Shown: positions 34,418-58,205 of the stretch, in pieces
Position numbering within the stretch: position 1 is the stretch's first letter
Layout of the letters: every line of letters begins with the position of its first letter
From: Nitrospirota bacterium
Lineage (GTDB): Bacteria > Nitrospirota > Nitrospiria > JACQBZ01
Direction of reading: 5' to 3'
Length of the DNA stretch: 64,000 nucleotides
Assembly: GCA_016201865.1 (NCBI GenBank)
Contig: JACQCA010000025.1
Coordinates: forward strand, 3,551 to 67,550
Notes under the pieces: generated by a model
What the model saw: only the letters and a program-made list of their open reading frames with translations
What the model was told of the DNA's origin: nothing
Databases searched by the model: none
Position numbers and translations under genes: made by a program

Positions 34418-35119
34418 TTAAAACACCAGTCCGAAACGAATCAGGATATTGCTCCGGTCTCCGGCGCCCAGCTCGATGCCGAAATGAAATATCTTGGATT
34501 CCGAATAATCCATCCCGATCATTCCGCCGATGGAACCGTCCTGTTTTGCCGTGCTGGAAACCCCGCCCGCCGGTCTGAGTTTATCCGTTCGACCGGAGAA
34601 TCTCAACCCCGTATAAAACCGGAAATCCGGCTCCGGAGCCGAAATCAGATCCTTCGAACCCACAAAAAAGCCGACCTCCTCTTCCGCCCATTGATCCTCC
34701 ATTGCGAAAACGACATTATTCCGCTCAAACCGGGAGGCCTTTCCGAATCGGTATTGCGCGGATAAACCTGCAAAATAGCCGCCCGAAAGCGGCCGGGTTC
34801 CTCGAAAGCCCATTCCCAGGACCGATCGCGTTTGGCTGCTTAAATCGGCCTTTTCCAATGCGACCTTTCCAAGGCCGGCCTTCACAAAAATTTCAAGCGG
34901 CTCCAGCAAACCGTACGTCAACTGAACCTCCTGCCGCGCCACCCTGAGACGGTCCTTGCCGGCATCTACCTTCATGTCCCGGCTGAACAACTCCGCCTGG
35001 AGATAGACGCTTAGCTTCCCCTTTCCCGTCACGAGCGGCGCGGGATTGGCCCAAGCCGTTCGGCTGAACAAAACCAGTCCTATAAGAACCCAAAAGACCT
35101 TCCGATTTCTTAGATTCAT
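34418..35119 (-). CDS. Outer-membrane beta-barrel protein (hypothetical)
   Basis: Signal peptide ending AWA. Alternating amphipathic strands. C-terminal ...IRFGLVF, the aromatic terminus typical of OMPs. Confidence 0.55.
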   Translation of the reverse strand: MNLRNRKVFWVLIGLVLFSRTAWANPAPLVTGKGKLSVYLQAELFSRDMKVDAGKDRLRVARQEVQLTYGLLEPLEIFVKAGLGKVALEKADLSSQTRSVLGMGFRGTRPLSGGYFAGLSAQYRFGKASRFERNNVVFAMEDQWAEEEVGFFVGSKDLISAPEPDFRFYTGLRFSGRTDKLRPAGGVSSTAKQDGSIGGMIGMDYSESKIFHFGIELGAGDRSNILIRFGLVF

Positions 35120-35170
35120 GGCCTTCCCCGTCATCCGGTCATGGATGGATCTGCTCGGTTTTCGTTGGGC

Positions 35171-36094
35171 TCAGCGTTTCCTGGGTTTGCGAATCTTCTC
35201 TTTTTTCAGTACGCTCTTGACGGCTTCGCCGATCACGGCCGGGTTTCGGACGACTTTCACACCGGCCTCTTCAAGCGTTGCGATTTTCTGTGCCGCCGTT
35301 CCCTTGCCGCCCGAGATGATCGCGCCGGCATGGCCCATCCGCCGGCCGGGCGGAGCCGTTACCCCGGCGATGAAACCGACGACCGGTTTCGTGACATGGG
35401 ACTTGATATAATCGGCTGCGCGTTCCTCGGCATCCCCCCCGATCTCGCCGATCATCACGATCGCCTCGGTGTTCCTGTCTTTCTGAAACAGTTCAAGAAC
35501 GTCCGTGAAATTCGTCCCGTTTACCGGGTCGCCGCCGATCCCGATGCAGGTGGACTGCCCAAGACTGAGCTCGGTCAACTGCCAGACCGCTTCATAGGTC
35601 AGCGTGCCGCTGCGGGAGACGACCCCCACCGAACCTTTTTTATGGATGAAGCCCGGCATGATCCCGATCTTGCATTCCTCCGGGGTAATGATCCCGGGAC
35701 AGTTGGGACCGATCAGACGGATCGTGCGTTTCCCGTTGTCTGAGGCCGTTTTTCCGGCGATGAACCGTTTTGCGCGGATCATATCGGCCAACGGGATTCC
35801 CTCGGTGATGCAGACGATCAGGCCGATTCCGGCATCGGCCGCCTCCATGATCGCGTCGGCTGCAAACGCCGGCGGCACAAAGATCATCGAGACATCGGGC
35901 TTCACGGCCTCCACGGCCTCCGATACCGTGTTGAAGACCGGAACCCCTTCAAACGCGGTTCCCCCTTTTCCGGGAGTCACACCGCCGACGATCTTCGTCC
36001 CGTACTCGCGGCAGGCCGCGGCATGGAACGATCCTTCCTTGCCCGTGATTCCCTGGACGACGACTTTGGTATTTTTGTTGACGAGGATGCTCAT
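35171..36094 (-). CDS. sucD: Succinyl-CoA synthetase alpha subunit with an unusual Lys-rich C-terminal tail ([11 protein letters not shown])
   Basis: [24 protein letters not shown]..., CoA-binding and phosphohistidine loop (SGTLTYE). Confidence 0.95.
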
Positions 36095-36096: not shown

Positions 36097-37281
36097 CTAT
36101 CCCTTTTTCGTTTTCTCTGCCTGCTTAATCCCCATCTGAACGACGCCGCCCCGCTGTCCGACCCAGACATTCCGTTCGGAATCGACCGTGACGGCATAAA
36201 CATCGTCGCCGATCAGACCGTCCGCCTTTGTATAGCTCTTCCAGGCCGTTCCATTAAAGCTCGACACGCCGTGATTGGTTCCGACCCAGATCAGCCCTGA
36301 CGGATCGCGTTCCAAGGCATAGACGACATTCCCGGATAATCCCTGTTGGGTGGTGTAGTTCGTCCAGCGCTTCCCGTCGAAGCGGCTGACGCCGCCGCCC
36401 CAGGTGCCGAACCATTTATCGCCGCGGGCATCGATCATGATCGTGAAAATATAATTTTCGTTGTAGGTCTCTTTTCCTTTATCATCCAAAACACTCAGGT
36501 CATGGAAGTGGCCGGCGTAACTCCGCCCCGGCGCTAATTCTACACCGGGATTCTCCTGCAGGGCCTCATACGCTTCTCCCGACGTCTTTTTTCGGGCGAG
36601 GGCCAATTCGTTGGGAGCCCCCAGACCGTCCTTATGGGTATAGGCGGCCCACTGTTTTCCGGCCGGAGCCGCAGGATCAAACCGATTCACGCCCTCCTCG
36701 GTGCCGAACCAAAGCGACCGGTCGCGATCCACCGCCAGACCGTAGACCCATTTATTCACGAGTCCGTCTTTGGTGTTGTACGTCGCGAATCGGGATCCTT
36801 CGGGAGCGGACGGATCGTATCGGGTCACGCCGTCCCACGTCGCGATCCACATGCCGCCGTCGGGATGAAAATCAATGTCGTACACCCATAAATCGGACAG
36901 CCCGTCCTGTTTGCCGAAAGCCGTCCAGGCGGCTCCGTCAAAACGGAGCAGACCGCCGGCATCCGTTCCAAACCACAATCCTCCTTTTGCATCCTTATTA
37001 ATCGTGAAGACGTAGTTGCTCGTCAAACCGTCGTTTTTGGTATAGGTCCGGACGAGCCCGCCGTTGACGCGATTGACCTTGATGATTCCGGTAGACGTTC
37101 CGACCCATAAAAAAGCGCCGTCCGACTTCAGCGCGCGAACCACATTGCCCGGACCCGTGTTGAAACTCGCCATGACCTTGTAGTCCGGCATGGGCGGACT
37201 TTTTTGGGCGCAGCCCCAGAAAAGTAAAAGGCTGCTCAGGATAACGACGATCGGTCGGCGCGGTTGTCGGCGGGTTGACAT
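36097..37281 (-). CDS. Lipoprotein built of two-component-regulator-propeller (Reg_prop) repeats, inserted between sucC and sucD
   Basis: Lipobox LLLFWGC. At least 6 repeats of the type [15 protein letters not shown] / [18 protein letters not shown] overlaps the sucC TGA (TGATG). Stop is 2 nt before the sucD ATG. Confidence 0.8.
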
Positions 37282-38444
37282 CAGGATTGAATGAGGCTGA
37301 CGATCTTCTGGGCCCCCTCCCACATCGTCCGCGCCACGATAAGGTTCAGTCCGGATTCGGCGAGCATCTGCCGCGCCTCCTCGGCGTTCGTCCCTTCCAG
37401 CCGCACAACCAGCGGAACCTTGATGGCGACCTCTTTTGCGGCATCCATTACGCCGCCAGCGATCCGCTCGCATCGGACGATCCCGCCGAAGATATTGATG
37501 AAGACTCCCTTGACATTCCGGTCCGACATCAGAATCGTGAAGGCCTGCTTCACGGTTTCCTTCGAGGCGCCGCCCCCCACATCGAGGAAGTTGGCCGGGA
37601 AGGAACCGGCGAGCTTGATCGTGTCCATGGTGGCCATCGCCAGGCCGGCCCCGTTCACCATGCAGCCGATGGCCCCATCGAGTTTGACGTAGTTCAGACC
37701 GTATTGCGAAGCCTGAATCTCGAGAGGGTCTTCCTCGTCAAGATCGCGGAGCGCCTTGATGTCGTCATTCCGGTAAAGCGAATTATCGTCAAAGGTCACC
37801 TTGGCGTCCAATGCGATCAACTTTTGATCTCGGGTGACAACGAGCGGATTGATTTCGACCACGGAAGCGCCCTTTTCCATGAAGAGACGATAGAGGTTTC
37901 CCAACATAAGGACGAAGAGGCCGATGATCTCTTTTGCGAGCCCCAGGCGATAGGCCAGCATCCGTCCGTGAAAGGCCTGATAGCCGGCGGACGGATCGAT
38001 CAGGGCTTTGAGAATTTTCTCGGGCGAATGGGCCGCGACTTCTTCAATCTCCATGCCGCCCGCACGGCTCGCGATGAAGACGGGCCAGCCCGAAAACCGG
38101 TCTACGAGGAGGCTCACGTACAGTTCGCTCGCGATATCCGCGCCCTCTTCAATCAAAAGACGCTTCAACTTGCGTCCTTCCGGGCCGGTCTGATGGGTAA
38201 CGAGGACCTTTCCCAGAAGCTCCTTCGCCAGCGTTTCGACCTGCGCGCGCTCCTTGGTCAGCTTGACGCCGCCGGCCTTCCCCCGTCCGCCGGCATGAAT
38301 CTGGGCCTTTACCACATAGACGGAGGATTGAAGCTGGTCGGCCCAAGCTTTCGTCTCCTCGACTGTGGCGACGGCCTTCCCGCGTGGCACGGGGATATTA
38401 AACTGAGTAAAGAGCTGCTTGGCCTGGAATTCGTGGATGTTCAT
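37281..38444 (-). CDS. sucC: Succinyl-CoA synthetase beta subunit (ATP-grasp)
   Basis: MNIHEFQAKQLFTQFNIPVPRG... 387 aa. Confidence 0.95.
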   Translation of the reverse strand: MNIHEFQAKQLFTQFNIPVPRGKAVATVEETKAWADQLQSSVYVVKAQIHAGGRGKAGGVKLTKERAQVETLAKELLGKVLVTHQTGPEGRKLKRLLIEEGADIASELYVSLLVDRFSGWPVFIASRAGGMEIEEVAAHSPEKILKALIDPSAGYQAFHGRMLAYRLGLAKEIIGLFVLMLGNLYRLFMEKGASVVEINPLVVTRDQKLIALDAKVTFDDNSLYRNDDIKALRDLDEEDPLEIQASQYGLNYVKLDGAIGCMVNGAGLAMATMDTIKLAGSFPANFLDVGGGASKETVKQAFTILMSDRNVKGVFINIFGGIVRCERIAGGVMDAAKEVAIKVPLVVRLEGTNAEEARQMLAESGLNLIVARTMWEGAQKIVSLIQS

Positions 38445-38615
38445 TGGATGATATCCTGATTGATTGAGCTAACGGAGAGGCATTTTATCAGAGGATAAGG
38501 CGTGAAAGCAACTGGGATTTATGGACGGATTTTGCACGATCCATTCCATCCTTGCTTAAGCCCACGGCGCGGTTCATAATAGGTTCATCCACAAAATAAG
38601 CAGGAGGAACCCGTT

Positions 38616-38777
38616 ATGATGCTTTATATCCACAAGGACTGCGGTGAGCCCGCGGTAGAGCGGCCGGACGCCATCATGCCGGAACTTCCCGCCGAATTCC
38701 CCTTCACCTGCTTAAGCTGCCTCGGGGAAATCGAGGATGAATCGGATCTCACTGCGGTCGAGCTGATGAGCCAGTAG
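38616..38777 (+). CDS. Candidate small Cys-containing protein (53 aa)
   Basis: CAGGAGGAAC 8 nt upstream of ATGATG. MMLYIHKDCGEPAVERPDAIMPELPAEFPFTCLSCLGEIEDESDLTAVELMSQ. GC-rich codon third positions. Confidence 0.35.
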   Translation: MMLYIHKDCGEPAVERPDAIMPELPAEFPFTCLSCLGEIEDESDLTAVELMSQ

Positions 38778-38884
38778 ATGATCCCCGCGCGCAGTGTTTG
38801 ACGGCTCTGCTGTTCCACTTTTCCATTGTCCATCCTTTCACCCGAGTGTTTCAACAAACAACAAAAGATTTGACCCTTCACTTA

Positions 38885-39688
38885 TTAGTCAATAACGATA
38901 TCAACATTACTTCTGGAGCACCCTATGATGAATGAATTAGTGCCGATCATCACTTTATCCTCCCCGATAATTATGGGTTCGTAATTAGGGAAATGGAAAG
39001 TTCCTATGAGTTTAATTGAAGAAGAATTGAGATAACGGACGTTTAGAACTTGTCTCGCTTGTTGATCATATACAATCAGGGTATGGCTGTCTGGTCGTTC
39101 TATCCGAAAGTAATTATTTGGGTTTATATCAAATTTGTTCTTGTCGATTGTTGCCACTATTCTGTGGTCTGCGCTAAAGATTTTTGCGGTTAAGTAGATC
39201 GCATCTGCCTCCTTACCGAATGAGATCAGGTCCTCGCTGGCGACTCTTAAAACTGTATGAGGGAATTGGTCTGAAAAAAACGCTGATTTACCAATGTAGA
39301 CTGTAAAAAAATTAGATGGAATGTTGCATCGGGTTATAGGTGTGGGATCGTTTGCGGGCTGAAGGACTCCAGACATTTTGTTTTCATTCGCTTGTGAGGA
39401 TTGCTCGGATTTTCTCTGTGTAAGGACTTTAAGAAAAGCCTCATAGGAATCTTTATCGAGCGCATCATTTCCGTAATCTGTGCAAAGACGGAAGTGTAGC
39501 ACCTCAAACTCTTGCAGACCTGGTACCTCAGCCCGGATTCTCTGGTAAGTCTGTTGAATTTCTCCACCTGCTTTTAACGCTTCCTTAATCTTTGGAATAG
39601 ATGCTTCTACTTTTTCCTGGACCGAGGCAGTAAGAACGTCGGGTGGTGGTTCGTAACAATATACTACTTGACCGTCTTTCCGAATCAA
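38885..39688 (-). CDS. Hypothetical protein in a low-GC island. Annotated frame starts with TTG. A signal-peptide sORF (39685-39771, ATG with RBS) lies in the -1 frame, suggesting a frameshifted exported protein
   Basis: 267-aa ORF, AT-rich relative to flanks. Upstream MLRKYFVLLTIFFSSLVRVCHPQGTNIN* in another frame. Confidence 0.5.
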   Translation of the reverse strand: MIRKDGQVVYCYEPPPDVLTASVQEKVEASIPKIKEALKAGGEIQQTYQRIRAEVPGLQEFEVLHFRLCTDYGNDALDKDSYEAFLKVLTQRKSEQSSQANENKMSGVLQPANDPTPITRCNIPSNFFTVYIGKSAFFSDQFPHTVLRVASEDLISFGKEADAIYLTAKIFSADHRIVATIDKNKFDINPNNYFRIERPDSHTLIVYDQQARQVLNVRYLNSSSIKLIGTFHFPNYEPIIIGEDKVMIGTNSFIIGCSRSNVDIVID

Positions 39689-39883
39689 TTTATGTTCGTT
39701 CCTTGAGGATGGCAGACTCGCACAAGAGATGAGAAAAATATGGTAAGTAAAACAAAGTATTTGCGCAACATATAATTCTCCCTATCTTTTGTTATTTGTC
39801 TTCCTCGTGTCTTTCTTGTCGATGAATCCATTCATCTGAAGACATGGGTAATGGGACGGGTTTAGGGTAACAACTTTGTGAGA

Positions 39884-40054
39884 GATGTAAGAACCAGGGC
39901 GGATCACGGGTTTCCTTTTCTCCATCCGGCGGATGTGACCGTCTGAAAAAATCAAAAACGGCAGGAATGGCTCGACTGAGCGACTCGACCGAGTTCGTCG
40001 AGGGCTCGCCGAAGTCGGCCCGCGCCGGAAGAATAATGGATGGGATTATACCGG
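39884..40054 (-). repeat. Copy A of a ~125-nt conserved element (plus a 46-bp palindromic insertion), between the DUF2283 gene and low-GC cargo. Contains a TATAAT box, the palindrome CATCCG-C-CGGATG and a sORF start MEKRKPVI
   Basis: ~85% identical to 45632-45750 over ~125 nt when read on the minus strand. Identity stops exactly at the low-GC boundary. Confidence 0.5.
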
Positions 40055-40107
40055 TTTAAGCGGGAGAGGTCAATGTTCTCGTAGAGGGAGTTCGAAGGGC
40101 GGAGCGG

Positions 40108-40350
40108 CTATTTCTTCATCAAGTCAACTTCCGCGCTCGTACCGGTCGCAACATTCTCCACAATCAATTTGCCGGCTTCCCGACCGCGCAATTGTTCGTT
40201 GGCGTCCAGCAGCTCGATGCCGTACACCGTCCCATCCGGAGCCAGGTCGACATTCAGTGATTCACTTACATGGACCGTCTCCACCTGGGCCGTTTTCTCT
40301 TGCAGGCGAAGATAAGCAATGTTGTGTTTTGGATCATAGGTCAACTTCAT
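40108..40350 (-). CDS. DUF2283-family protein (putative antitoxin-like partner of DUF4258)
   Basis: MKLTYDPKHNIAYLRL... 80 aa. Confidence 0.7.
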   Translation of the reverse strand: MKLTYDPKHNIAYLRLQEKTAQVETVHVSESLNVDLAPDGTVYGIELLDANEQLRGREAGKLIVENVATGTSAEVDLMKK

Positions 40351-40360
40351 GATGGCCCTC

Positions 40361-40612
40361 CTAAAAGAATCGGGCGATAAATGTAATCGCCAGCCAGTCT
40401 TTTCCTTCTCTTACCGCGTATACTTCCACCTGCTTGGTTGCATAAACCTTTCCCCTCCAGATTTTGCCGAAAGGGAAATTTCTTCTGAAACCCGTTCTCC
40501 CATACTTGGCCGGGAAGGTTTCGCCCGTTTCTACGGCAGTAATGACTTCCGCTTCGGTCGCCCCTCTTTCATTCAGCCGTTCGACCGCGTGCGGATGCAG
40601 CCTGACACTCAT
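40361..40612 (-). CDS. DUF4258-family protein (putative toxin-like)
   Basis: HPHAVERLNERGATEAEV... 83 aa. Immediately upstream of the DUF2283 gene. Confidence 0.7.
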   Translation of the reverse strand: MSVRLHPHAVERLNERGATEAEVITAVETGETFPAKYGRTGFRRNFPFGKIWRGKVYATKQVEVYAVREGKDWLAITFIARFF

Positions 40613-40756
40613 CCACGTTCACCACGACGTTATCATAGAAGGAGTGTTGTTTAAAGAAACCCCTTAAATCGGGATTCATTATCCGAACGGATCTTACGAT
40701 ACCGGAATTTTACCGAGAAGGCAAGCGAACAAAGGAAGCGGATGGAGCCGGCAGTT

Positions 40757-40785
40757 TTGACTCCGGAAGCATCCGATGGTATGAT
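40757..40785 (+). promoter_or_regulatory. Sigma70-type promoter TTGACT-17nt-TATGAT upstream of the dus gene
   Basis: TTGACT 40757-40762, TATGAT 40780-40785. dus ATG at 40828 with GAGGAA. Confidence 0.5.
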
Positions 40786-40827
40786 GATCCGCTCAAACAC
40801 AACCTGTCACGAGGAAACGGACGTTTC

Positions 40828-41985
40828 ATGGACGAAAACTCCTTTTGGAATAATCTCTCCCGGCCGATCGTCGGCCTCGCCCCGATGGACGGCGTGACAG
40901 ATGCCGCGTTTCGCGCCATCACGGCCCGGCATGGAGGCCCCGATCTCAGTTTCACGGAATTTGTATCGATCGACCGGATCGTATCGGGCTATGATCCGGA
41001 TCTGGCCGAGCTCCGTTACAGCGAAATCGAGCGGCCGGTGATCGCGCAGGTTTTCGGGACGGACCCCGAGGCCTTTTATCGCACCGCGCATCTCATCTGC
41101 GAGTTGGGCTTTGACGGGATCGACATCAACATGGGCTGCCCGTCAAAAACCATCGCACGCGCCGGGGCCGGAGCCGGATTGATACGCACGCCCGAGCGCG
41201 CGAGAGAGATTCTCCGGCGGGCACAGCAGGGAATACGGGACTGGGCCGCCGGTCAGGCGATCGACCGGATCGGCCTTCCGGCCACCGTTCCGGAGGACGT
41301 CCGGCGCGCGAAAGCCCTCTGGTTCGGAAGCGCCGTTGATCCGGTCGTGAACGCCCCACGACAAACGATCCCCGTCTCGGTCAAGACGCGCCTGGGATAT
41401 GGCCGGATCGTCATTGACGACTGGATTCCCTCCCTTCTTTCAGAATCTCCGGCCGCGATTACGCTCCACGGTCGAACGCTGACCCAGAATTATGCCGTCG
41501 AGGCCGACTGGGAGGCGATCGCGCGCGCGGCCGAGATCGTTCGGGGTTCCCGCACGCTGATCCTGGGCAACGGCGATATACGATCCACCGCGACGGCCGT
41601 CCGCCGGATTCGCGAGACCGGCGTCCACGGTGTTTTGGTCGGCCGTGCCGCGATGGGAAATCCCTGGATCTTTACCGCCTGTGATTCGATACGAACCGCC
41701 GTTCAGACCGGAGAGGCCCCGATGACTCCATCGGTTTCGCACAGCGAGAAATTGGCCGTGGCATTGGAGCATGCCGGGCTGTTCGACCGAATTCGCGGAG
41801 AAGTTTCGTTTCGAGTCGCACGTAAATTCCTTTCCGCTTACTGCCGCGGTTTTGAAAACGCGTCCGAGCTGCGTCAACGCCTCGTCCGGGTCGATACGCT
41901 CCGGGAATTGGAGGCGATCCTCCAACCCGCGGCCACCTTCGTGGCCATCCCTGCACCCACGACTGTGGGTGTCGTATGCGCCTGA
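40828..41985 (+). CDS. tRNA-dihydrouridine synthase (Dus family)
   Basis: VGLAPMDGVTDAAFR...GIDINMGCP... TIM-barrel Dus motifs. 385 aa. Confidence 0.9.
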   Translation: MDENSFWNNLSRPIVGLAPMDGVTDAAFRAITARHGGPDLSFTEFVSIDRIVSGYDPDLAELRYSEIERPVIAQVFGTDPEAFYRTAHLICELGFDGIDINMGCPSKTIARAGAGAGLIRTPERAREILRRAQQGIRDWAAGQAIDRIGLPATVPEDVRRAKALWFGSAVDPVVNAPRQTIPVSVKTRLGYGRIVIDDWIPSLLSESPAAITLHGRTLTQNYAVEADWEAIARAAEIVRGSRTLILGNGDIRSTATAVRRIRETGVHGVLVGRAAMGNPWIFTACDSIRTAVQTGEAPMTPSVSHSEKLAVALEHAGLFDRIRGEVSFRVARKFLSAYCRGFENASELRQRLVRVDTLRELEAILQPAATFVAIPAPTTVGVVCA

Positions 41986-42599: not shown

Positions 42600-42618
42600 G
42601 ATTATGCCGATCCATGAT

Positions 42619-45978: not shown

Positions 45979-47592
45979 TTATTGTTTCGCCGCCGCGGCG
46001 GGCATGATTTCGGCGCGGCGGACGTAATCGGGAAGGATGATCGGTGCGATCCGTTTCGGCTTGATTCCGTTCTTCTCCAGTTCCTTCTGGAACCGGGTCA
46101 CATGGGACAGCGTCAGCTTTCCGGCTGGAACCGATTTCGCACGCTGGGCGGCCGCGGCGCCCGCCCGCTTTCCGAAAACGATTAAATCCAGAAGCGAATT
46201 TCCCATCAAGCGGTTCCGGCCGTGCAGCCCGCCGGATGCTTCTCCGGCGACGAACAGCCCCTGGGTCTGGGACTGCCCGTCCGTATCAATCGCCACGCCG
46301 CCGTTCTGGTAATGAAGCGTAGGATAGATCAGCACCGGCTCTTTTCGAATATCAATCCCGTACCGCTCAAACTGCCGGACCATCGCCGGGAAGCGCTTTG
46401 TGATGTTTCCCTCGCCCAATAGTAGATCGATCATCGGAATGTCGAGCCAGACCCCGACCCGTCCGGCCGGCGTCTTCACACCCCGGCCCTCGGCGCATTC
46501 ACGTATGATCGACGCGGCCACGACGTCGCGTGTATCGAGTTCGTTAACGAACCGCTTGCCGTTCCGGTTGACGAGATGTCCGCCGTCGGAGCGGATGCCT
46601 TCGGTCACGAGCGCGCCGGCCAGCTGTTCCGGAAAAACGGCCCCGGTGGGATGGTACTGAAAGGTGTCGGCATGGGCCAGCTTCGCGCCGGTGCGATAGG
46701 CCAGAACCAGCGCGTCGCCGGTCGCGCCATAGTGATTGCTCGTGGGAAAACCCTCGATATGAAGCCGTCCGGAGCCGCCCGTCGCCAGGATGACCGACTT
46801 GGCTTCGACCACGATGAACTGGTCGTTGTCCATATTTTTGAGCACCGCGCCGGAGCATCGCCCGTCCGGATCGGTCAGCAGCTCCACCACGGGTGAGAAC
46901 TCCAGGATCGGGATCCGTTGGTTTAAGACCTCGTCCTTAAGCACACGCATGATCTCAAGGCCGGTATAATCGCTGCAGGTGAGAAGCCGCGGCTTTGTGC
47001 TACCGCCGCCTTTCTTCGTCTTGAGGTTTCCGCTCTCGTCCCGGTCGAACAGAACCCCGAGCCCGATCAGCCACTGCGCGGCCTTCGGGCCCTCTTCCAC
47101 CAGGACCTTGAGAAGCTTTGGATCGTTCTTGAGATGTCCGCCTCGAAGCGTGTCGAAGAAATGGGTCACGGGCGAATCATCCTCGGTGATCGCGACCTGC
47201 ATCCCGCCCTGGGCCATGACCGTATTGGAATCGCCCATTCGCAGCTTGGTCACGAGCAGAACGTCCGCTCCAAGCGCCTTGGCCGTCAGCGCGGCCGTCG
47301 CCCCCGCCCCGCCCCCGCCGACCACCAGCACATCCACACGGTACTGCGGCGTAAGATCGAGATCTGCCGGAACGGGACTGTCCGATTCCAGAAGCTCGGC
47401 CACCTCCCGCACGGTTCGTTCGCCCGCGTTGGGACCGGTCTGGATTTTGTGATACTCTTCTTTTTTATAATCGGGATGGAATGCGCGGACCAGCCGGTCC
47501 CGTTCCTCCGGCGACTGGATCGGAACGGTCTGCTTGCGACGTTCGTCGCGTTCGTGGATGACCTTGCTTTTTGATTCGGCGATGACGTCCAT
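45979..47592 (-). CDS. FAD-dependent fumarate reductase/succinate dehydrogenase flavoprotein-like protein with a ~95-aa N-terminal extension
   Basis: VDVLVVGGGGAGATAAL (Rossmann). His/Arg capping-domain motifs (HYQNGG..., FVAGEASGGLHGRNRLMGNSLLD). Confidence 0.8.
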   Translation of the reverse strand: MDVIAESKSKVIHERDERRKQTVPIQSPEERDRLVRAFHPDYKKEEYHKIQTGPNAGERTVREVAELLESDSPVPADLDLTPQYRVDVLVVGGGGAGATAALTAKALGADVLLVTKLRMGDSNTVMAQGGMQVAITEDDSPVTHFFDTLRGGHLKNDPKLLKVLVEEGPKAAQWLIGLGVLFDRDESGNLKTKKGGGSTKPRLLTCSDYTGLEIMRVLKDEVLNQRIPILEFSPVVELLTDPDGRCSGAVLKNMDNDQFIVVEAKSVILATGGSGRLHIEGFPTSNHYGATGDALVLAYRTGAKLAHADTFQYHPTGAVFPEQLAGALVTEGIRSDGGHLVNRNGKRFVNELDTRDVVAASIIRECAEGRGVKTPAGRVGVWLDIPMIDLLLGEGNITKRFPAMVRQFERYGIDIRKEPVLIYPTLHYQNGGVAIDTDGQSQTQGLFVAGEASGGLHGRNRLMGNSLLDLIVFGKRAGAAAAQRAKSVPAGKLTLSHVTRFQKELEKNGIKPKRIAPIILPDYVRRAEIMPAAAAKQ

Positions 47593-47604
47593 AGGCGAGC
47601 TTTC

Positions 47605-48312
47605 CTATTTAGACGGTTGCCCGGCGGCTTTTAATTCCTCTTCGCTCATAGAGAGGATCTTTTTCCATTCATCCGTGTATTTGCCGGACCGGATCTCGTC
47701 AACCCGGCGGGTGAGATTCTGCGGCGGCGCCGTCAGACGGGCCCCGTGCGCGCGGCTGGCGTAAAGCGCGACATGGTTCGGGGCGATGTCGGCGATGCAG
47801 ACCGGAATGCACTGGCCGCACATCACGCAGTCCATGAACATCTCCGAGACCTTCTGAAAATCGCCGAAGACCGCCTTCCAGACGCCGTCCCGCACGTCGA
47901 TCCCCTGCGGACAGGCCTCGGTGCAGGCGTTGCAGTTCCGGCAGAGCGAGGCTTCGGGATAGATCTTGAACAGCTCCTGTTTCGGATCGGAAATCTGATC
48001 CAGATCGTAGATCGACTTGCGGTTCGGGTAATAGGAGAAATTCAGAAAGAAGGACATCCCGTCCTCGACCAGCATCTGGCAGGCCAGCGTGTTTCGAAGA
48101 CGGACGTCGTCCTTCGTCCGGTACGTGGCGGCGCAGGCCCCGCAGAAGCCGCCGAGACATCCCGCGCCGCGAACAACCTCATGCCCGGTATACCACATCG
48201 CCCGCAGCATTGTAAGCCCGTCGGGCACGGAATACGGCCGGCCCATGATCTCGACCGTGATCATCCGGCTCTGTGCGCCGATCGTACTCTCGTGAACGCG
48301 TTCAGTCATCAT
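47605..48312 (-). CDS. SdhB/FrdB-like iron-sulfur subunit (2Fe-2S plus two Cx2Cx2Cx3C clusters)
   Basis: CLGGFCGAC; CRNCNACTEACP; CVMCGQCIPVC. Confidence 0.8.
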   Translation of the reverse strand: MMTERVHESTIGAQSRMITVEIMGRPYSVPDGLTMLRAMWYTGHEVVRGAGCLGGFCGACAATYRTKDDVRLRNTLACQMLVEDGMSFFLNFSYYPNRKSIYDLDQISDPKQELFKIYPEASLCRNCNACTEACPQGIDVRDGVWKAVFGDFQKVSEMFMDCVMCGQCIPVCIADIAPNHVALYASRAHGARLTAPPQNLTRRVDEIRSGKYTDEWKKILSMSEEELKAAGQPSK

Positions 48313-48321
48313 TCCTTCCGA

Positions 48322-50568
48322 TTAACTTAAGGCATTTAATGCCGAACCGGCCTTAAACCATCCGATCTGCTGTTCCGTCATGCTGTGGTTGGCCTGTATC
48401 TTGATCTCTTTTCCATCGGCCTTCTGAACCACGACCTCGACCGGCTTTTCCGGCGCAAGCTGAGCCAAGCCTCGAACGTTGACCCGATCACTCTGCTCGA
48501 ATTTTTCGTAATCCTTCGGATCGGCAAACGTCAACGGAAGGATGCCCTGTTTTTTCAAGTTGGTCTCATGAATACGTGCGAAGCTTTTCACGAGAACGGC
48601 CAGTACGCCCAGGAAGCGCGGCGACATCGCGGCATGCTCGCGGCTGGAACCCTCGCCGTAATTCTCATCGCCGATCACGACCGAGCCTATGCCTTTGGCC
48701 TTGTACCGGCGTGCAATCGCGGCGATCGTCAGGTTGGATTCGCCGGACAACACATCCGTCCCCTTGCCAGGCTCGGCGCTGAAGACGTTGTTCGCACCCA
48801 GAAACATGTTGTCGCTGATCTTGTCCAGATGGCCGCGATATTTGAGCCACTGCCCGGCGGGCGAGATATGATCGGTGGTGCATTTTCCCTTGGCCTTGAT
48901 CAGGATCGGCAGTTTTTCGAAATCCTTCCCGTCCCATCGTGGAAAAGGTTTTAAAAGCTGGAGCCGCTCACTCGTGGGCGGAATATCGATCTCGATCTTG
49001 TCGCCGTCCTTCGCGGGTGGTTCGAATCCTTCCTCGCCTTTTGCAAACCCTTTGGTCGGAAGTTCTTCCCCACGCGGCGGCTCGAACTTGATCTTCGTTC
49101 CGTCCGCGGCCGTCAGACTGCCCGTGATAGGATTGAAGTCCAAGGTTCCGGCAAAAGCCATGGCCGTAACGATTTCGGGACTCGAAAGGAAGGAAAGCGT
49201 CTCGGCATTCCCGTCGTTTCGGCCGGGGAAGTTTCGGTTGTACGAGCTGATGATCGAGTTGGACTCCTTCGGCTTCAGGTCGGATCGTTTCCATTGCCCG
49301 ATACAGGGTCCGCAGGCGTTGGCCAGCACCGTCCCGCCCATCGCTTCGAATGTTTTCATGAAGCCGTCACGGATCATCGTGTGATAGATCCGTTCGGACC
49401 CGGGCGTCACCAAAAAACCGGCCTTGGCCTTCAGGCCGGCTTTCAGCCCCTGAAGCGCGATATGGGCCGAGCGGCTGATGTCTTCATACGAGGAATTGGT
49501 GCAGGATCCGATGAGGGCGGCCTTTAATTCAACCGGGTATCCTTTTTCCTTCGCCTCGGCCGCGAGTTTCGAGATCGGCCGCGCCAGGTCCGGGGTATGC
49601 GGCCCGACGACGTGAGGTTCCAGCTCGGACAGGTTGATCTCGACGATCTGGTCGTAGTACTTTTCGGGTTTGACCATCACCTCCGGATCGGACATGAGGT
49701 TCTCCCGATTGGTCTGCGCCAGCTTGGCCCATTCGGCCCGGTCAGTTGCATTCAAATAGGCTGCCATCTTGTCGTCGAACTGGAAAATCGATGTGGTCGC
49801 CCCGAGCTCGGCGCCCATATTCGTGATCGTTCCCTTGCCGGTGCAGGAGATCGTCCCGGCGCCGGGCCCGAAATATTCGATGATCTTGTTCGTCCCGCCC
49901 TTCACCGTCAGTAGGCCGCAGAGATATAAAATCACGTCCTTCGGAGAGCTCCAGCCCTTCAACTGTCCCGTCAATCGAACGCCGATCAATTTGGGATGCA
50001 ACACCTCCCACGGCAGCCCGGCCATCACCTCGCCGGCATCCGCGCCGCCTACCCCGATCGCAAGCATGCCGAGCCCCCCGCCGTTCGGTGTGTGAGAATC
50101 GGTTCCGATCAGAAGCGCACCCGGAAAGGCGGAGTTCTCCAGAACGACCTGATGGATGATCCCCGCGCCCGGTTTCCAGAAACCGATCCCGAATTTCCGT
50201 GCGGCCGAACTTAGAAAATTGTAAACCTCCTTGTTCTCTTCGATCGCACGCCGAACGTCATCCTTCGCGCCGCTCTGCGCACGGATCAGATGATCGCAAT
50301 GGACCGTACTCGGGATGGCCACTTTTTTCTTTCCGGCCTGAATGAACTGGAGCAGCGCCATCTGGGCCGTCGCGTCCTGCATTGCGACCCGGTCCGGTCG
50401 CAGAAGAAGCTGGGCCTTGCCACGTTCCCAGACCTGGGCATTAAAATCATCGGCATGCGTCACCAGGATTTTTTCGGTCAATGTCAACGGACGGCCGAAT
50501 TTTTTCCGGGCCTTCGCCAGCTTTTCCGGCATGGAGGCATAAAGTTTTTTGATGGCTTCAACCGACAT
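48322..50568 (-). CDS. acn: Aconitate hydratase (aconitase family, ~750-aa type)
   Basis: GTDSHTPNGGGLG and other aconitase cluster-ligand motifs. 748 aa. Confidence 0.92.
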   Translation of the reverse strand: MSVEAIKKLYASMPEKLAKARKKFGRPLTLTEKILVTHADDFNAQVWERGKAQLLLRPDRVAMQDATAQMALLQFIQAGKKKVAIPSTVHCDHLIRAQSGAKDDVRRAIEENKEVYNFLSSAARKFGIGFWKPGAGIIHQVVLENSAFPGALLIGTDSHTPNGGGLGMLAIGVGGADAGEVMAGLPWEVLHPKLIGVRLTGQLKGWSSPKDVILYLCGLLTVKGGTNKIIEYFGPGAGTISCTGKGTITNMGAELGATTSIFQFDDKMAAYLNATDRAEWAKLAQTNRENLMSDPEVMVKPEKYYDQIVEINLSELEPHVVGPHTPDLARPISKLAAEAKEKGYPVELKAALIGSCTNSSYEDISRSAHIALQGLKAGLKAKAGFLVTPGSERIYHTMIRDGFMKTFEAMGGTVLANACGPCIGQWKRSDLKPKESNSIISSYNRNFPGRNDGNAETLSFLSSPEIVTAMAFAGTLDFNPITGSLTAADGTKIKFEPPRGEELPTKGFAKGEEGFEPPAKDGDKIEIDIPPTSERLQLLKPFPRWDGKDFEKLPILIKAKGKCTTDHISPAGQWLKYRGHLDKISDNMFLGANNVFSAEPGKGTDVLSGESNLTIAAIARRYKAKGIGSVVIGDENYGEGSSREHAAMSPRFLGVLAVLVKSFARIHETNLKKQGILPLTFADPKDYEKFEQSDRVNVRGLAQLAPEKPVEVVVQKADGKEIKIQANHSMTEQQIGWFKAGSALNALS

Positions 50569-50641
50569 GGAAGGCTCCCTTCCTCATTATCGTCTGGAAA
50601 TTTCATTCTAACGGGCCGCCGCAGCGATAGTCAACGGATAT

Positions 50642-52468
50642 CTATTTGAGCGGCGGGACGTCCTTCTTTTTCGGGGCCGCGTAATTGATCAGGTAATCGA
50701 ACAAACGGATCAAGCGGCTGCCCTGCTGCTTCTGATCGATCCAGTGGCCGATCAGGCCGATCGTCCGCGCCAGAATAAAAAAGCCGTTGAGGCTCTCGAC
50801 CGGGAAGCCCAGGTCGACCAGTACGGCCGCGATCGTTCCATCCACGTTGAGGATCAGTGTGTCTTTCTTGGCCGTCGTGATCTTTTCGACCTCCAGCGCA
50901 AAATCCAGATGCGGCGTGGAAATCTTCAGGCTCTTCACGTAACCCACGAGCTCTTTGACCCTTTTGTCCGGATTCTTTACGCTTTTGACGCGGTGGCCGA
51001 TTCCGGGAACCGGTCCGACATTGGCCTTCATGTAGGTCAAAAAGTCGTCCACCGAAAGCTTGTTTTCGACGGCATATTTAAACCACTTGCCCGCATCCGT
51101 GACGGCGCCCCCAAAGCGCGGCCCGATCATGATCATGCCGGCCGCGATCGACTGGGCCATCGAGATCCCGGCGCAGGACGCGATGATCGTCGTCAGCGCG
51201 CCCGAGACGGCCGGCCCGTGGTCGGCCGAGAGCATGATGATCCGTTTGATGATTTCGGCCTCCTGCTGCGTGATCAGTTTTTTGTTCCAGAGAAGGCCGA
51301 TGACGTGAGGAATCTGGTAGCCTTGATTGATCAGCTCCGAGGCGGCATAACCGTAATAGAGCGGCTCTTCCCCGCGGTCGTCCGAGATGGTGGTCTTCAC
51401 CATCGGCTCGACAAACACCTCGCCGCTTTTGCGTGACTCGTCGATCGTCTTGGGAAGCTTGGGCAGGGCCTCCGGTTCAACAGCCGGGGCTTCCTTCACC
51501 AGCCCTTTGGAAAGAAGCTCCTGGTAGACCTCTTTGATCGCGGGGCCGAGGCCGCCGAACGTGGCCGGCACGATCGCGCCGGCTTCGCGAAGACGGTCGG
51601 CTTTGTGCCGCGCGCTGCCTTCGCCCTTCATCCCTTCCTTTGCGCCGGCATGACCGAACTTCATTCCCTTGGGCAGCACCTCCTGGCAGAAGCCGGAGAT
51701 GACCGCCATTAATTTGATCCGGCGTTTTTTGGCGGCATACCAGTCGGCCGCCCGTTCTTCAAGATCACCGCCCATCTCGCCCACGATCACGACGGCATGG
51801 GTCTTCGGATCCTTTTCGAACATCTCAAGGTAGGTCACATAATCCGATCCCGGATAGGCGTCTCCCCCGATTCCGATCGCGGTCGTGACACCGTCGGCGA
51901 ACTGGCTGCAGATCCAGATGATCTCATTGGACAGGCCGCCGGATTTTGTGATCACGCCGAAGGAACCGGGACGGTAGAGCTTGCTCAAGATCAAATTGTC
52001 AAACGCGCCGCCGATCACGCCCAGACGGCATTCGCCGGCCGAGATGATGCCGATGGCGGACGGTCCGTTAAAAACCTTGCCCTTTTCCCGTGCGATGCGC
52101 GACAGCAGTTTGCTGTCCTTTTCGGGAACGCCCTCGGTGATCATCGAAACCAGCCGGATCGAACTCGTATTCAGCGCCTCGCGGGCCGCTCCGAGCGCCC
52201 GGTCGGGACCGACATAAACCAGACTGGTGTTGATCTCCGGATGACCGGCGACCGCCTCGGCCATTGTTTTGTAGACCGGGATTGAAACGATCTCGCTGCC
52301 GTAGGGCACTTCATTGATCTTTCCGGCATCCGGAGGAAAGACGAATGCCTGGACCGTCAGCGGCGCCTTGCTCAAATAACAGAATTCGGACATCCGGCGG
52401 GCCGCGTTCAGCCCGGCCGGACCGCCCTGGATCACCACCCGCGTATCGCGATTCGCCACGATGCTCAT
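50642..52468 (-). CDS. aclA: ATP-citrate lyase alpha subunit (CoA-binding/phosphohistidine plus citrate-synthase-like domain)
   Basis: 608 aa. SucD-like N-terminal domain (GxxGxxH loop), citrate-synthase-like C-terminal domain. ATGA overlap with aclB. Confidence 0.92.
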   Translation of the reverse strand: MSIVANRDTRVVIQGGPAGLNAARRMSEFCYLSKAPLTVQAFVFPPDAGKINEVPYGSEIVSIPVYKTMAEAVAGHPEINTSLVYVGPDRALGAAREALNTSSIRLVSMITEGVPEKDSKLLSRIAREKGKVFNGPSAIGIISAGECRLGVIGGAFDNLILSKLYRPGSFGVITKSGGLSNEIIWICSQFADGVTTAIGIGGDAYPGSDYVTYLEMFEKDPKTHAVVIVGEMGGDLEERAADWYAAKKRRIKLMAVISGFCQEVLPKGMKFGHAGAKEGMKGEGSARHKADRLREAGAIVPATFGGLGPAIKEVYQELLSKGLVKEAPAVEPEALPKLPKTIDESRKSGEVFVEPMVKTTISDDRGEEPLYYGYAASELINQGYQIPHVIGLLWNKKLITQQEAEIIKRIIMLSADHGPAVSGALTTIIASCAGISMAQSIAAGMIMIGPRFGGAVTDAGKWFKYAVENKLSVDDFLTYMKANVGPVPGIGHRVKSVKNPDKRVKELVGYVKSLKISTPHLDFALEVEKITTAKKDTLILNVDGTIAAVLVDLGFPVESLNGFFILARTIGLIGHWIDQKQQGSRLIRLFDYLINYAAPKKKDVPPLK

Positions 52469-53748
52469 CGTCTCGCCTCCCTGGCTCTCCCGCTCCTCGT
52501 CTTTGCCGTTCCAGTTTTCTCACGCAAAGGCGCCGCCGCAGCCGCCGTCTCTTTTTGAAGGGACATGTCCACGATATCGGTCAGGGGGGTGTTGCGATCG
52601 AAGACATGGATCAAGAACCCTTCGGACTCGAGGGTCTTCATCGCGGCCAGTCCATCCTTTTCATAGGGGCCTCCGCGACGGACCCAGATTTCGACGTTGC
52701 CGAGCTTACCCTGGGCCTTGGCTTTGCGGAAGCCGGCGATGATCCCGGCGAAGGTTTTTTTGACGTTGGTAAAATTGGCGATTGCGCCGCCCACGATGAT
52801 CCGTTGGATGTTGGGAAGGGAACAGACCTTTTCGGTCAGAACTTCGACCGCCCAGTCGGGAGGATCCCCGGAATACTCGGCGTAATTCGCCGGCTTACCG
52901 CCGAGGGCGACGACGGCATCGGTATAGAAGACGCTGGCCCCGCCGCCGGCCGGGAGCAGCGCCGTATCACCGCCCGGGATCTCGATGAATTTGACCGAAC
53001 CCTTGATTTTGGAATCCACCTCCATCACGGCCCGTTCATTCTCGGAATAGGGCCGTCCGAACTCGGCCGCAAACGAAAAGTCCCAGTCCGGATGACGGAA
53101 ACGGGCGTCCGCGTCCAGCAAGGTTACCGCATCCAGCGCCACCAGTTCGCGATCGGCGGAACGCAGCACGAGCGGATTGATCTCAAGATACTGCGCATCC
53201 TCCTGCTCAAAGCACTGATGCAGCTTGGCCGCAAACTCCACGATGCGCGGTGTCAGGTCCTTGTCGAATCCAGCCCGTTTGGACAGGTCAGTCAGCTCAT
53301 TTTTGGATGGTACTTCACCGATTGGGATGGATATTTTCTTGACGTTGTCCCAATTCGACTCGATCTCGATCCCGCCCACGCTCGCAAGCAACAGCTCCGC
53401 GCCTTCCCGCGTGGACTTGACTGAAATATAATATTCCTCCTTGTGAGGGATCATCTCGGAGACGATCACCTGGGAGATCGTCATTCCGCCGCCGAGCGAT
53501 CTACCCAGCATTTCCTTGACCGCACGTTTGGCCGCGTCCAGATCGAGATCCACCTTGACCAGACCCAGCTTCATTCTGGAGCCGATCGCCTCATGGGCTT
53601 TCACGACTAAACGGGATTCCTTCAACCAGGCATTGGCCGAGGCTAACTGCTCGAACTGTTCCGTGGAGGTCACAACCAGATAGCCCGGAACGCTCATCCC
53701 CCACTTCTTCAATAAGCCCATCCCCGGGCCTTCAAGCACCTTTGCCAT
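52465..53748 (-). CDS. aclB: ATP-citrate lyase beta subunit (ATP-grasp, SucC-like)
   Basis: 427 aa. ATP-grasp and CoA-ligase motifs. AGGAGG RBS. Ala/Arg-rich C-terminal tail. Confidence 0.92.
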   Translation of the reverse strand: MAKVLEGPGMGLLKKWGMSVPGYLVVTSTEQFEQLASANAWLKESRLVVKAHEAIGSRMKLGLVKVDLDLDAAKRAVKEMLGRSLGGGMTISQVIVSEMIPHKEEYYISVKSTREGAELLLASVGGIEIESNWDNVKKISIPIGEVPSKNELTDLSKRAGFDKDLTPRIVEFAAKLHQCFEQEDAQYLEINPLVLRSADRELVALDAVTLLDADARFRHPDWDFSFAAEFGRPYSENERAVMEVDSKIKGSVKFIEIPGGDTALLPAGGGASVFYTDAVVALGGKPANYAEYSGDPPDWAVEVLTEKVCSLPNIQRIIVGGAIANFTNVKKTFAGIIAGFRKAKAQGKLGNVEIWVRRGGPYEKDGLAAMKTLESEGFLIHVFDRNTPLTDIVDMSLQKETAAAAAPLREKTGTAKTRSGRAREARR

Positions 53749-53817
53749 TTAATGCCTCCTGTCCCTTCAAATTCTCATGGTTTCGGCATTGATGAACGTC
53801 TCAGAAAAGGAAGGGAT

Positions 53818-53846
53818 ATTGTAGCCAGTTTTATCGTTATTCTCAA
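53818..53846 (-). promoter_or_regulatory. Sigma70-type promoter TTGAGA-17nt-TACAAT on the minus strand driving aclBA
   Basis: Minus strand TTGAGA (plus 53841-53846) and TACAAT (plus 53818-53823), 17-nt spacer. Confidence 0.5.
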
Positions 53847-53848
53847 CA

Positions 53849-53886
53849 GAAAAAAAGACCTATCGGCTAAGACCCGAATAGGTCTT
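53849..53886 (-). terminator. Rho-independent terminator (minus strand) after the lipoprotein gene
   Basis: AGACCTAT-loop-ATAGGTCT followed by TTTTTTT on the minus strand. Confidence 0.55.
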
Positions 53887-53895
53887 TAGACCCAT

Positions 53896-55161
53896 CTAAG
53901 GAACGGGGGGCTTTTCTTCCGGGTTCGGCGAGTACCGCGACAGTTGTCCCACCAAGCGGTCCAACGCTCCGCTTAATGATTCCCGGACGATTTTCATGGG
54001 GGATCCCCATGTTCGAATCATCCGGTCAATGCCGTATTCCGCTTCGCCTTTCCAAAGCAGTTTTCCGCTACGGGTCTCGATCAATTGGACATCCTCAATC
54101 CGGGTGATGGCGGTTGCCTTAAAAATCCGCGGATAACCTATTCCTCCACTCCAGATCGGAAATGGCGCGTTCTCACGCGTAGGCGTGACCGATGCATAAG
54201 CATGAGCCAACCGGCTGACCAGAACAACATCCACACCCTCTTCGGACCATTCGCGGAGTTCTTCGGATGTAACTCCACGGGTGGCGATGATCAAAACGTT
54301 TCCGTAAATATCCGCCGCCTGCAGTTTATGTGTCAATTGACCGGCCACCGCATCTATGAGAGGTGTAGTAATAGTTTTATTATCATAGCTGTACAGTAAA
54401 TAATTAATATCGCCCTTTAGTTTTCTCACCTCCACATCCTTTTCCTCGGGAGGCCGAAGATCTTCGGGCGACAACACCCCCACCCGCCACTGTCGCATCG
54501 CGGGCAGTTCGGAGGGGTAAACCTGATGATGGGAAAAGGACTGCCCGCTTAATTGGATCGCCAACTGATTGATCGCCCCGCGGAGCGCTTCGGCGGCGTA
54601 GAAGATGTCCCGATCGGGATTTTTTTCCTGCCGTTGGATCAGTTTGTCGGCCGTTCCCTGCCACAGAAGTTGTCCGGTGTGCGTACTGTAAAGTTTCAGA
54701 TTTTCAAACTGAACATGACCTTCGATCCGATGATCCGGCTCTTGCCGGCCATAGAAATGAATCAGATCACCCATTAAAACAGCATCGGCGCCTTGAGAAA
54801 TCAGATCGTGGACGCGATCGGGAGAGGTCGGATCGACCGGTCCGGACACGGTTTGGATCTGACTGAAGACGGATGAAACCCGGAGATGTCGGACGATTCG
54901 CTCCGTGACGGCGCCGGCCAGATCAGACGGCAGATTGAAACGGGAAGCCCATGCTCTTTCCTCTGGAGAGCGCCGGTCTTCCAAGACCGCCACGGCTATA
55001 CTGAGAGCGTGGGGTCGCGGCGCGACGAAGATTTCGCTGTCCTCCAGCGAATAAGAAACCGGCGAAACAGCCGCGCAACCGTTTATAAGGAGACAGACGA
55101 AGCCGCAGGAGGCGATCAGGCCCCGCCGTCCGCCGCTATTTAAGCGATGTAATGAACTCAT
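53896..55161 (-). CDS. Hypothetical lipoprotein with two internally similar halves
   Basis: Lipobox LLINGCAA. 421 aa. Confidence 0.6.
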   Translation of the reverse strand: MSSLHRLNSGGRRGLIASCGFVCLLINGCAAVSPVSYSLEDSEIFVAPRPHALSIAVAVLEDRRSPEERAWASRFNLPSDLAGAVTERIVRHLRVSSVFSQIQTVSGPVDPTSPDRVHDLISQGADAVLMGDLIHFYGRQEPDHRIEGHVQFENLKLYSTHTGQLLWQGTADKLIQRQEKNPDRDIFYAAEALRGAINQLAIQLSGQSFSHHQVYPSELPAMRQWRVGVLSPEDLRPPEEKDVEVRKLKGDINYLLYSYDNKTITTPLIDAVAGQLTHKLQAADIYGNVLIIATRGVTSEELREWSEEGVDVVLVSRLAHAYASVTPTRENAPFPIWSGGIGYPRIFKATAITRIEDVQLIETRSGKLLWKGEAEYGIDRMIRTWGSPMKIVRESLSGALDRLVGQLSRYSPNPEEKPPVP

Positions 55162-55420
55162 CGATCGGGATGGCCGGCATGGTTAGGAATTGAACCGATC
55201 CTCGCGAGCCGAGCTCTACCGAGATCTTTGCGATGGCCTTATTATCCTTGGCCTCGATGATATTCACGAAGTCATACGGACCGAGAAGCGCATACTGGGC
55301 CACCACTTTGGCCCCCATCGTCTCGATTTCTTTATTCACCTGATTGATGCGGCTGGGCTTGGCCTTGATCGTTTTCCGGCCCTGATCGGTCAATGTGCTG
55401 AGCAAGACATAGGTCGGCAT
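55136..55420 (-). CDS. GYD-domain protein
   Basis: MPTYVLLSTLTDQGRKTIK...GPYDFVNIIEA... 94 aa. Confidence 0.7.
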   Translation of the reverse strand: MPTYVLLSTLTDQGRKTIKAKPSRINQVNKEIETMGAKVVAQYALLGPYDFVNIIEAKDNKAIAKISVELGSRGSVQFLTMPAIPIDEFITSLK

Positions 55421-55498
55421 GGTGAATCCTCCTTATGGTTAGAAGTCGGTGGAAGGAATGACCGGACAGCTTTAGATTACTCCGTTCGGGAAAGTTTT

Positions 55499-58205
<2,707 letters not shown>

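Follow-up and report, generated by a model that had tools for sequence, protein, structure and literature searches.

A gene for a predicted Reg_prop beta-propeller lipoprotein separates sucC from sucD in one Nitrospiria clade

The 64,000-nucleotide stretch of Nitrospirota DNA analyzed here, referred to as the window (contig JACQCA010000025.1 of assembly GCA_016201865.1), carries the genes for both subunits of succinyl-CoA synthetase, sucC and sucD, on its minus strand, separated by a gene for a predicted lipoprotein composed of Reg_prop beta-propeller repeats. An initial annotation made from the sequence alone had proposed this interruption, and the list of open reading frames (ORFs), the raw sequence and Pfam all agree with it. 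SucC and SucD both contain the Pfam domains of succinyl-CoA synthetase subunits. The locus comprises:

38444..37281, minus strand: sucC, succinyl-CoA synthetase beta subunit, 387 aa (Pfam ATP-grasp_2, E=7e-72; Ligase_CoA, E=2e-31)
37281..36097, minus strand: Reg_prop propeller gene (predicted lipoprotein), 394 aa plus TAG stop (Pfam PF07494, E=1.3e-25)
37213..37281, minus strand: predicted signal peptide of the propeller protein, residues 1-23 (n-region RRQPRR, 12-residue hydrophobic core, F-W-G before Cys24)
37212-37210, minus strand: Cys24 of the propeller protein, at least 90% conserved in the family alignment
36457..36639, minus strand: insert between blades 4 and 5, residues 215-275 (~60 residues), with residues 244-261 predicted disordered
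36100..36105, minus strand: AAGGGA, Shine-Dalgarno (SD)-like sequence for sucD, formed by the final sense codons of the propeller gene (Lys-Gly), 5 nt 5' of the sucD ATG
36094..35171, minus strand: sucD, succinyl-CoA synthetase alpha subunit, 307 aa (Pfam CoA_binding and Ligase_CoA)
34418..35134, minus strand: 238-aa secreted protein (signal peptide ending AWA, C-terminal Phe), directly 3' of sucD

The three genes are packed closely. The sucC stop codon (TGA, 37283-37281) and the propeller start codon (ATG, 37281-37279) have one base in common, giving TGATG; the propeller stop codon (TAG, 36099-36097) is followed by GC and then by the sucD ATG (36094-36092), a spacing of 2 nt. Both junctions had been read correctly in the initial annotation, which went on to state that all three genes are co-translated. 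The packing of the codons stands, whereas co-translation itself is a further step, and sucD possesses an SD-like sequence of its own. We found no SD sequence upstream of the propeller ATG in the window, so translation of the propeller probably proceeds by termination and reinitiation; the AAGGGA of sucD lies inside the last propeller codons, and sucD translation therefore need not depend on that of the propeller. The aaaaagggaTAG motif at the propeller 3' end recurs in three relatives (L001-L003), where, as in the window, the gene ends in Lys-Lys-Gly-stop. A consensus scan between the three genes revealed no credible promoter or terminator, and the only promoter-like site was an unconvincing 9/12 match about 500 nt inside sucC. 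A separate propeller promoter, which the initial annotation would have taken as a sign of random insertion, is not supported. The locus has the layout of a translationally coupled operon: genes on the same strand, stop and start codons that overlap or abut, and no intervening promoter or terminator in the scan.

The propeller gene is functional and has resided at this site for a long time. Its GC content (0.57) is in line with that of its neighbors, and its codon usage lies at a distance of 0.505 from that of the remaining window, among the lowest values of 38 genes; a foreign ORF at 38885-39688, by contrast, has a distance of 1.58. The deviant base composition or codon usage that the initial annotation would have taken as a sign of random insertion is therefore not seen, and no direct or inverted repeats lie beside the gene. 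Native composition, the absence of flanking repeats and conservation of the three-gene arrangement in relatives rule out a recent or mobile insertion. The ORF is unbroken in all relatives, and the ratio of nonsynonymous to synonymous substitution (dN/dS) among orthologues at unsaturated dS is 0.15-0.17, compared with 0.09-0.13 for sucD and ~0.07 for sucC, both of which are more constrained. Two independent short-read assemblies (SRR12113409 and SRR12113410) show an identical sucC-propeller junction, which excludes misassembly; the contigs recovered with the window propeller protein itself are only 2.5 kb long. Intact ORFs, a dN/dS of about 0.15 and agreement between assemblies together dispose of the concern that the gene is an annotation or assembly artefact. 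We also rejected a frameshifted fusion of SucC and the propeller: a propeller frame that stays open far upstream is confined to the window, L002 and L003, and in L001, L081 and L082 the open stretch measures from 24 nt or less to 60 nt.

Searching 5.8 billion proteins yielded 2298 homologues at E <= 1e-5. Those with at least 55% identity (P0001-P0031) all come from metagenome-assembled genomes (MAGs) of Nitrospirota/Nitrospiria or from metagenomes, and every examined locus in this identity range, about ten in number, has the order sucC-propeller-sucD (L001-L003, L081, L082, L167, L168 and L170; in L087 the propeller 3' end is followed by sucD). The next homologue in order of identity (P0032, 54%) sits in a multihaem-cytochrome cluster instead, and this change of context indicates that the sucCD-embedded copies are a discrete orthologous group; in a neighbor-joining tree they constitute one clade. 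The sucC/propeller junction is TGATG in the window and L001-L003 and ATGA in L082 and L167, that is, in six of seven full loci, while the propeller and sucD are separated by 1-3 nt or overlap as ATGA. The insertion is thus lineage-specific, a point on which the initial annotation had proposed a synteny comparison, yet old, and the triad cleanly marks, by synteny, a single uncultured clade of Nitrospiria. No second locus of the family was present in the L001-L003 MAGs among the best 80 homologues.

The wider setting is a reductive tricarboxylic acid (rTCA) cluster, represented in the window by the following:

45979..57742, minus strand: rTCA genes for monomeric isocitrate dehydrogenase, a 421-aa ORF, aclB, aclA, aconitase, sdhB/frdB and sdhA/frdA (Pfam)

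In L081, L082 and L167 the triad closes a contiguous series, (aclA)-aconitase-sdhB/frdB-sdhA/frdA-sucC-X-sucD, X being the propeller gene. The window has about 7.5 kb of other genes (38450-45980) between sdhA and sucC, and here, as in L168 and L170, the triad has stayed together though detached from the remainder of the cluster.

The propeller protein has the basic n-region, hydrophobic h-region and cysteine of a signal peptidase II substrate, and these features, together with the conserved Cys24, agree with the lipoprotein-type signal peptide originally proposed. AlphaFold2 places a low-confidence helix at residues 11-22. Across the family, the strict PROSITE lipobox pattern (PS51257) is matched by 74 of 120 homologues, and by 82 of 120 if Trp is permitted. 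NCBI annotates the identical protein (P0001) as 364 aa beginning at Met31, which removes the signal peptide and the lipobox Cys (37191-37281). Homologues favor the longer start chosen in the initial annotation and, judged by their alignment, the Met31 start is an annotation error. The protein is presumably lipidated, and the best reading of its sequence is that its site of action is the periplasm or the outer membrane rather than the cytoplasm.

Reg_prop was the only Pfam match to the protein (86.6 bits against a cutoff of 20.4). Seven blade cores of the form W-[VFI]-[GA]-[TQ] lie at residues 59, 103, 145, 191, 290, 332 and 373, and the propeller repeats recognized in the initial annotation are present. 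An AlphaFold2 model built on an 18-sequence alignment has seven four-stranded blades (pLDDT 86.4, pTM 0.84). The insert between blades 4 and 5 contains a family-invariant His216-x-Asp-Gly-Leu-Gly-Ala motif, His258 and His260, and the segment ETYNENY with Asn274 and Tyr277. Across 132 family members, the essentially invariant residues outside the repeats are His216, Asn274, Tyr277, Glu195, Arg300 and Asp302; His260 is conserved save in the second copies of proteobacterial tandems, and His258 only in the sucCD-embedded and hem-associated groups. The set of invariant residues argues for a defined binding site. The top Foldseek matches are the periplasmic propellers of BT4663 and BT3049 (E ~1e-16, TM 0.6-0.66 over the query). 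By sequence as well as fold, the closest solved relatives are propellers of Bacteroides hybrid two-component system (HTCS) sensors, followed by virginiamycin B lyase, with PorZ distant.

Paralogues of the propeller gene occur in several recurrent settings. The sister group to the sucCD-embedded clade (L004-L008; also L084 and L169) lies beside c7 trihaem cytochromes, a 5-haem cytochrome, an NHL propeller and a SurA-type peptidyl-prolyl isomerase (PPIase). Of the 47 proteobacterial family loci, 43 include a c-type cytochrome gene, as do 11 of the 31 other Nitrospirota loci; the latter also include 11 with a hemA-X-hemC context and five with the gene after nadK. The hemA-X-hemC loci (L009, L010 and L016-L021; for example L019 2520-6023) belong to Manganitrophaceae and other Nitrospiria and have the operon order ccsA-like-hemA-X-hemC-cobA/hemD-hemB, in which X overlaps hemA by 4 nt. 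In a separate nadK-X clade (L031, L052, L060, L077 and L078) the codons overlap those of nadK (NAD kinase). Leptospirillia and Nitrospira have a cupredoxin/c7-X context. In the Proteobacteria (Gallionella, Rhodocyclaceae, Burkholderiales, Ca. Tenderia and others) the propeller genes come as tandem pairs with a monohaem cytochrome c gene ahead of them, and that gene is itself preceded either by a PAS-kinase, a sigma-54 regulator and Sel1 or by ccmFGHI and a redoxin; 3' of the pair there is often a haem-motif HAMP-PAS-GGDEF-EAL protein or a c7 cytochrome. These modules (L027-L080; for example L074 502-8829 and L063 48-6265) appear to be uncharacterized.

Some of these neighbors raise the prospect that the protein is a periplasmic sensor accessory, binding an envelope or environmental ligand and relaying the signal to a separately encoded membrane kinase or diguanylate cyclase. 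Its nearest solved structures are sensor propellers, the invariant residues suggest a defined pocket, and proteobacterial homologues lie between a PAS histidine kinase with a sigma-54 regulator on one side and the HAMP-PAS-GGDEF-EAL protein on the other. However, no signaling gene adjoins any sucCD-embedded locus, none of the Y_Y_Y, transmembrane or kinase modules of an HTCS is present in the protein, and the Nitrospirota paralogues keep company with cytochromes, hem genes and nadK rather than with regulators. We regard a sensory role as improbable for the protein.

The initial annotation had pointed out that sucC and sucD are normally adjacent. A split is unusual, but it is not unique. Scanning metagenome contigs with SucD gave 47 loci that had both genes, and in 44 of these the gap between them was at most 266 nt. 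The remaining three have other inserts: a lipoprotein gene in L089, a GIY-YIG gene in L147 and a glyoxalase gene in L114. L089 is a related rTCA cluster (sdhA-sucC-X-sucD, SucD 72% identical) in which the inserted gene (2477-3061) encodes an unrelated 194-aa lipoprotein with the lipobox STSGC and no Pfam match. Interrupted sucCD pairs are thus rare but recurrent.

That unrelated genes have come to occupy the same junction is what would be expected if the propeller were a neutral hitchhiker, a functional protein whose position has no regulatory meaning and whose synteny has been kept by entrenchment after a chance insertion. Overlapping stop and start codons at one end and a sucD SD sequence embedded in propeller codons at the other would make precise loss costly, and the coupling of paralogues 3' of hemA and nadK suggests a tendency of the family to land behind cytoplasmic genes. 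Set against this are the persistence of the triad down to 55% protein identity and its integrity in the three loci where it has been cut off from the rTCA cluster; the repeated coupling to highly expressed core operons could, moreover, be under selection. We consider neutral hitchhiking a possible explanation, though not a likely one. The hemA-X-hemC and nadK-X couplings are compatible with selected co-expression and with entrenchment alike.

The tight coupling between the two subunit genes, and nothing else, speaks for a further possibility, namely that the N-terminus is left uncleaved and the propeller remains in the cytoplasm, where it scaffolds or regulates succinyl-CoA synthetase. The basic-hydrophobic-Cys N-terminus is nevertheless found family-wide, including in members with no link to sucCD, and paralogues are located in periplasmic cytochrome clusters. 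The nearest sucCD pairs do without a propeller, their genes being directly adjacent (L088 and L090, SucD identity 73% and 69%). Neither SucC nor SucD shows compensating changes, and both are more strongly constrained than the propeller. These observations make a cytoplasmic role extremely improbable and argue against the propeller as a third subunit or partner of SucCD.

The Lys-rich tail of SucD that the initial annotation had singled out as atypical is indeed present, as a C-terminal extension of 17 residues, rich in Lys and Arg, beyond the 290-aa form, but it is not peculiar to the locus. Within the clade it is carried by the window, L001, L002 and L168 (307-315 aa) and is missing from L003, L081, L082, L167 and L087 (290-291 aa), and comparable or longer basic tails occur in seven unrelated proteins among 86 SucD sampled. 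Lys/Arg/Ala-rich extensions of ~35-55 residues were seen in L102, L103, L104, L105, L124, L127 and L143, which represent several unrelated lineages. We rejected the tail as a propeller-linked trait, given that within the clade only one subclade has it and that unrelated lineages carry similar ones; it is a low-complexity appendage that has turned up repeatedly and has no connection with the propeller.

Together, the results favor a reading, to which we assign a probability of roughly 0.55, in which the protein is an exported lipoprotein of a cytochrome-c-associated family that was relocated once into the sucCD operon, is co-expressed with it and has no direct role in SucCD. A copy would have moved out of a multihaem-cytochrome cluster to the sucC-sucD junction of the rTCA genes in the ancestor of a single Nitrospiria clade, and the propeller would since have been produced from the sucCD mRNA. 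Ribosomes ending on sucC would restart at the TGATG overlap and yield a low output of propeller, while sucD would initiate from the SD sequence embedded in the final propeller codons. Such an arrangement would tie propeller expression to that of carbon-fixation genes, and the interlocking of the translation signals would make it difficult to reverse. The layout is most likely that of a co-expressed passenger, not of an enzyme component, and the propeller itself most likely either binds periplasmic cytochromes or serves them as a scaffold, or else is an accessory that binds a ligand.

Several observations weigh against this relocation and co-expression reading. Tight coupling is not universal, as L081 has a 100-nt gap 3' of sucC. 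There is no cytochrome gene at the window copy or at any sucCD-embedded locus examined, so that the link to cytochromes comes solely from the paralogues. The histidine kinase, sigma-54 regulator and GGDEF-EAL genes among the proteobacterial neighbors mean that a sensory role fits those loci as well as electron transfer does. Lastly, the window protein fails the strict PROSITE lipobox, having Trp at position -2, and could be a plain secreted protein instead of a lipoprotein.

A bolder version of the relocation and co-expression reading, which we hold to be improbable, makes the whole family a hitherto unrecognized periplasmic factor, possibly one with a metal or haem bound at the invariant His216/His260/Asn274/Tyr277/Glu195 site. 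The factor would be needed for cytochrome-c-dependent lithotrophic electron flow, and Nitrospirota would have wired it by translational coupling into sucC-X-sucD, hemA-X-hemC and nadK-X. If it were true, envelope electron-transfer capacity would be made in proportion to carbon fixation and to the supply of haem and NADP.

Whatever its role, the gene defines an uncharacterized and widespread family of single-propeller lipoproteins, whose neighbors (c-type cytochromes, ccm, the hem operon, nadK, and sucCD in rTCA clusters) point to the periplasmic electron-transfer machinery of lithoautotrophs. The locus is also a natural example in which the operon of a cytoplasmic heterodimeric enzyme has an exported protein translated from its middle, and it lends itself to studies of how stoichiometry is maintained across an interrupting cistron. 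If its location is merely a neutral hitchhike, the arrangement would be a curiosity of operon evolution. Literature searches recovered no paper on this Reg_prop lipoprotein family or on a sucC-X-sucD arrangement; as far as we found, the arrangement has not been described before, while the domain family was already known.

The gene directly 3' of sucD is the other envelope candidate at the locus. Its position is kept in the closest relatives, with 56% identity in L001 (6136-6822) and L168 (12289-12957) and 48% in L002 (3018-3320). The 238-aa product has no Pfam or NCBIfam match, is possibly a small outer-membrane barrel and could be a partner of the propeller lipoprotein. On the other side of the triad, L168 encodes a 1613-aa multicopper-oxidase-like protein (2215-7056, minus strand) just 5' of sucC.

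Other features of the window include a second envelope lipoprotein gene in the rTCA cluster, the 421-aa ORF between monomeric isocitrate dehydrogenase and aclB (53896-55161, minus strand), which has a lipoprotein-type N-terminus (LLINGC) and weak GNA1162-like and DUF4136 matches. The spacer between sdhA and sucC contains the foreign ORF mentioned above (38885-39688; 267 aa, GC 0.41, atypical codon usage, no Pfam match), small paired ORFs at 40108-40350 and 40361-40612, a nucleotidyltransferase gene (44750-45094) that adjoins a 126-aa ORF and may form a toxin-antitoxin pair with it, and Dus- and Maf-like genes on the plus strand (within 38450-45980). Farther away, a single ORF of 2678 aa (21991-30027, plus strand) joins an N-terminal FAD oxidoreductase and an ETF-QO-like 4Fe-4S region to acyl-CoA dehydrogenase domains and ETF beta- and alpha-like domains, and so unites an acyl-CoA dehydrogenase and the electron-transfer flavoprotein chain that serves it in an unusually large fusion.

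Among known systems, the HTCS sensors BT4663 (4a2l/4a2m), BT3049 (3v9f) and BT4673 (3ott) resemble the propeller protein most closely: they share its PF07494 repeats (profile E=1e-54 to 2e-28), its seven-bladed fold and an extracytoplasmic location. They differ in having two propellers joined to Y_Y_Y, transmembrane, kinase, receiver and AraC modules, whereas the window protein has no signaling domains and is predicted to consist of one propeller, anchored by lipid and carrying a 60-residue insert between blades 4 and 5. At 394 aa, with one propeller and Reg_prop as its sole Pfam match, it is not a hybrid two-component sensor. Resemblance to PorZ of the type IX secretion system (T9SS; PDB 5m11, NF052228) is weak (PDB profile E=1.5e-5), and PorZ has two propellers and a C-terminal T9SS domain. 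Membership of the PorZ family or another named NCBIfam family was rejected, matches being only sub-threshold (PorZ 48.9 bits against a cutoff of 260).

The sister paralogues invite a different comparison. Beta-propeller lipoproteins recur, and are expressed, in cytochrome islands for extracellular electron transfer (EET), in which multihaem cytochromes occur together with a PPIase and with beta-propellers that are secreted or are lipoproteins; some of these have been detected in proteomes (PMC5539420; PMC8322314; bioRxiv 10.1101/2022.05.06.490989). The sister-paralogue clusters match the composition of the SEEP-SRB/Desulfuromonadales core cluster (PMC5539420); the DFE_0451/0452/0463 proteins of D. 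ferrophilus include a seven-bladed propeller with a lipoprotein signal (PMC8322314), and the family can be likened, by cluster composition, to UetH/UetI of the uet cluster of Ca. Tenderia (bioRxiv 10.1101/2022.05.06.490989). The described EET core propellers are six-bladed or annotated as NHL repeats, in contrast to the Reg_prop repeats here, and the window copy, unlike the propellers of EET islands, is no longer in a cytochrome cluster. Placement beside multihaem cytochromes, a PPIase and a porin, as in the Uet/SEEP-SRB core type, was found for the sister paralogues only, and we therefore did not classify the window protein as an EET-island accessory propeller.

The placement of the gene, as opposed to its product, has a parallel in E. 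coli, in which bamB (yfgL), encoding an outer-membrane propeller lipoprotein, lies between yfgM and der and is co-transcribed with cytoplasmic genes. BamB is an eight-bladed PQQ-like propeller, and the Pfam search gave no PQQ match for the window protein. The two cases differ in a further respect: the window gene separates the two subunit genes of a single enzyme.

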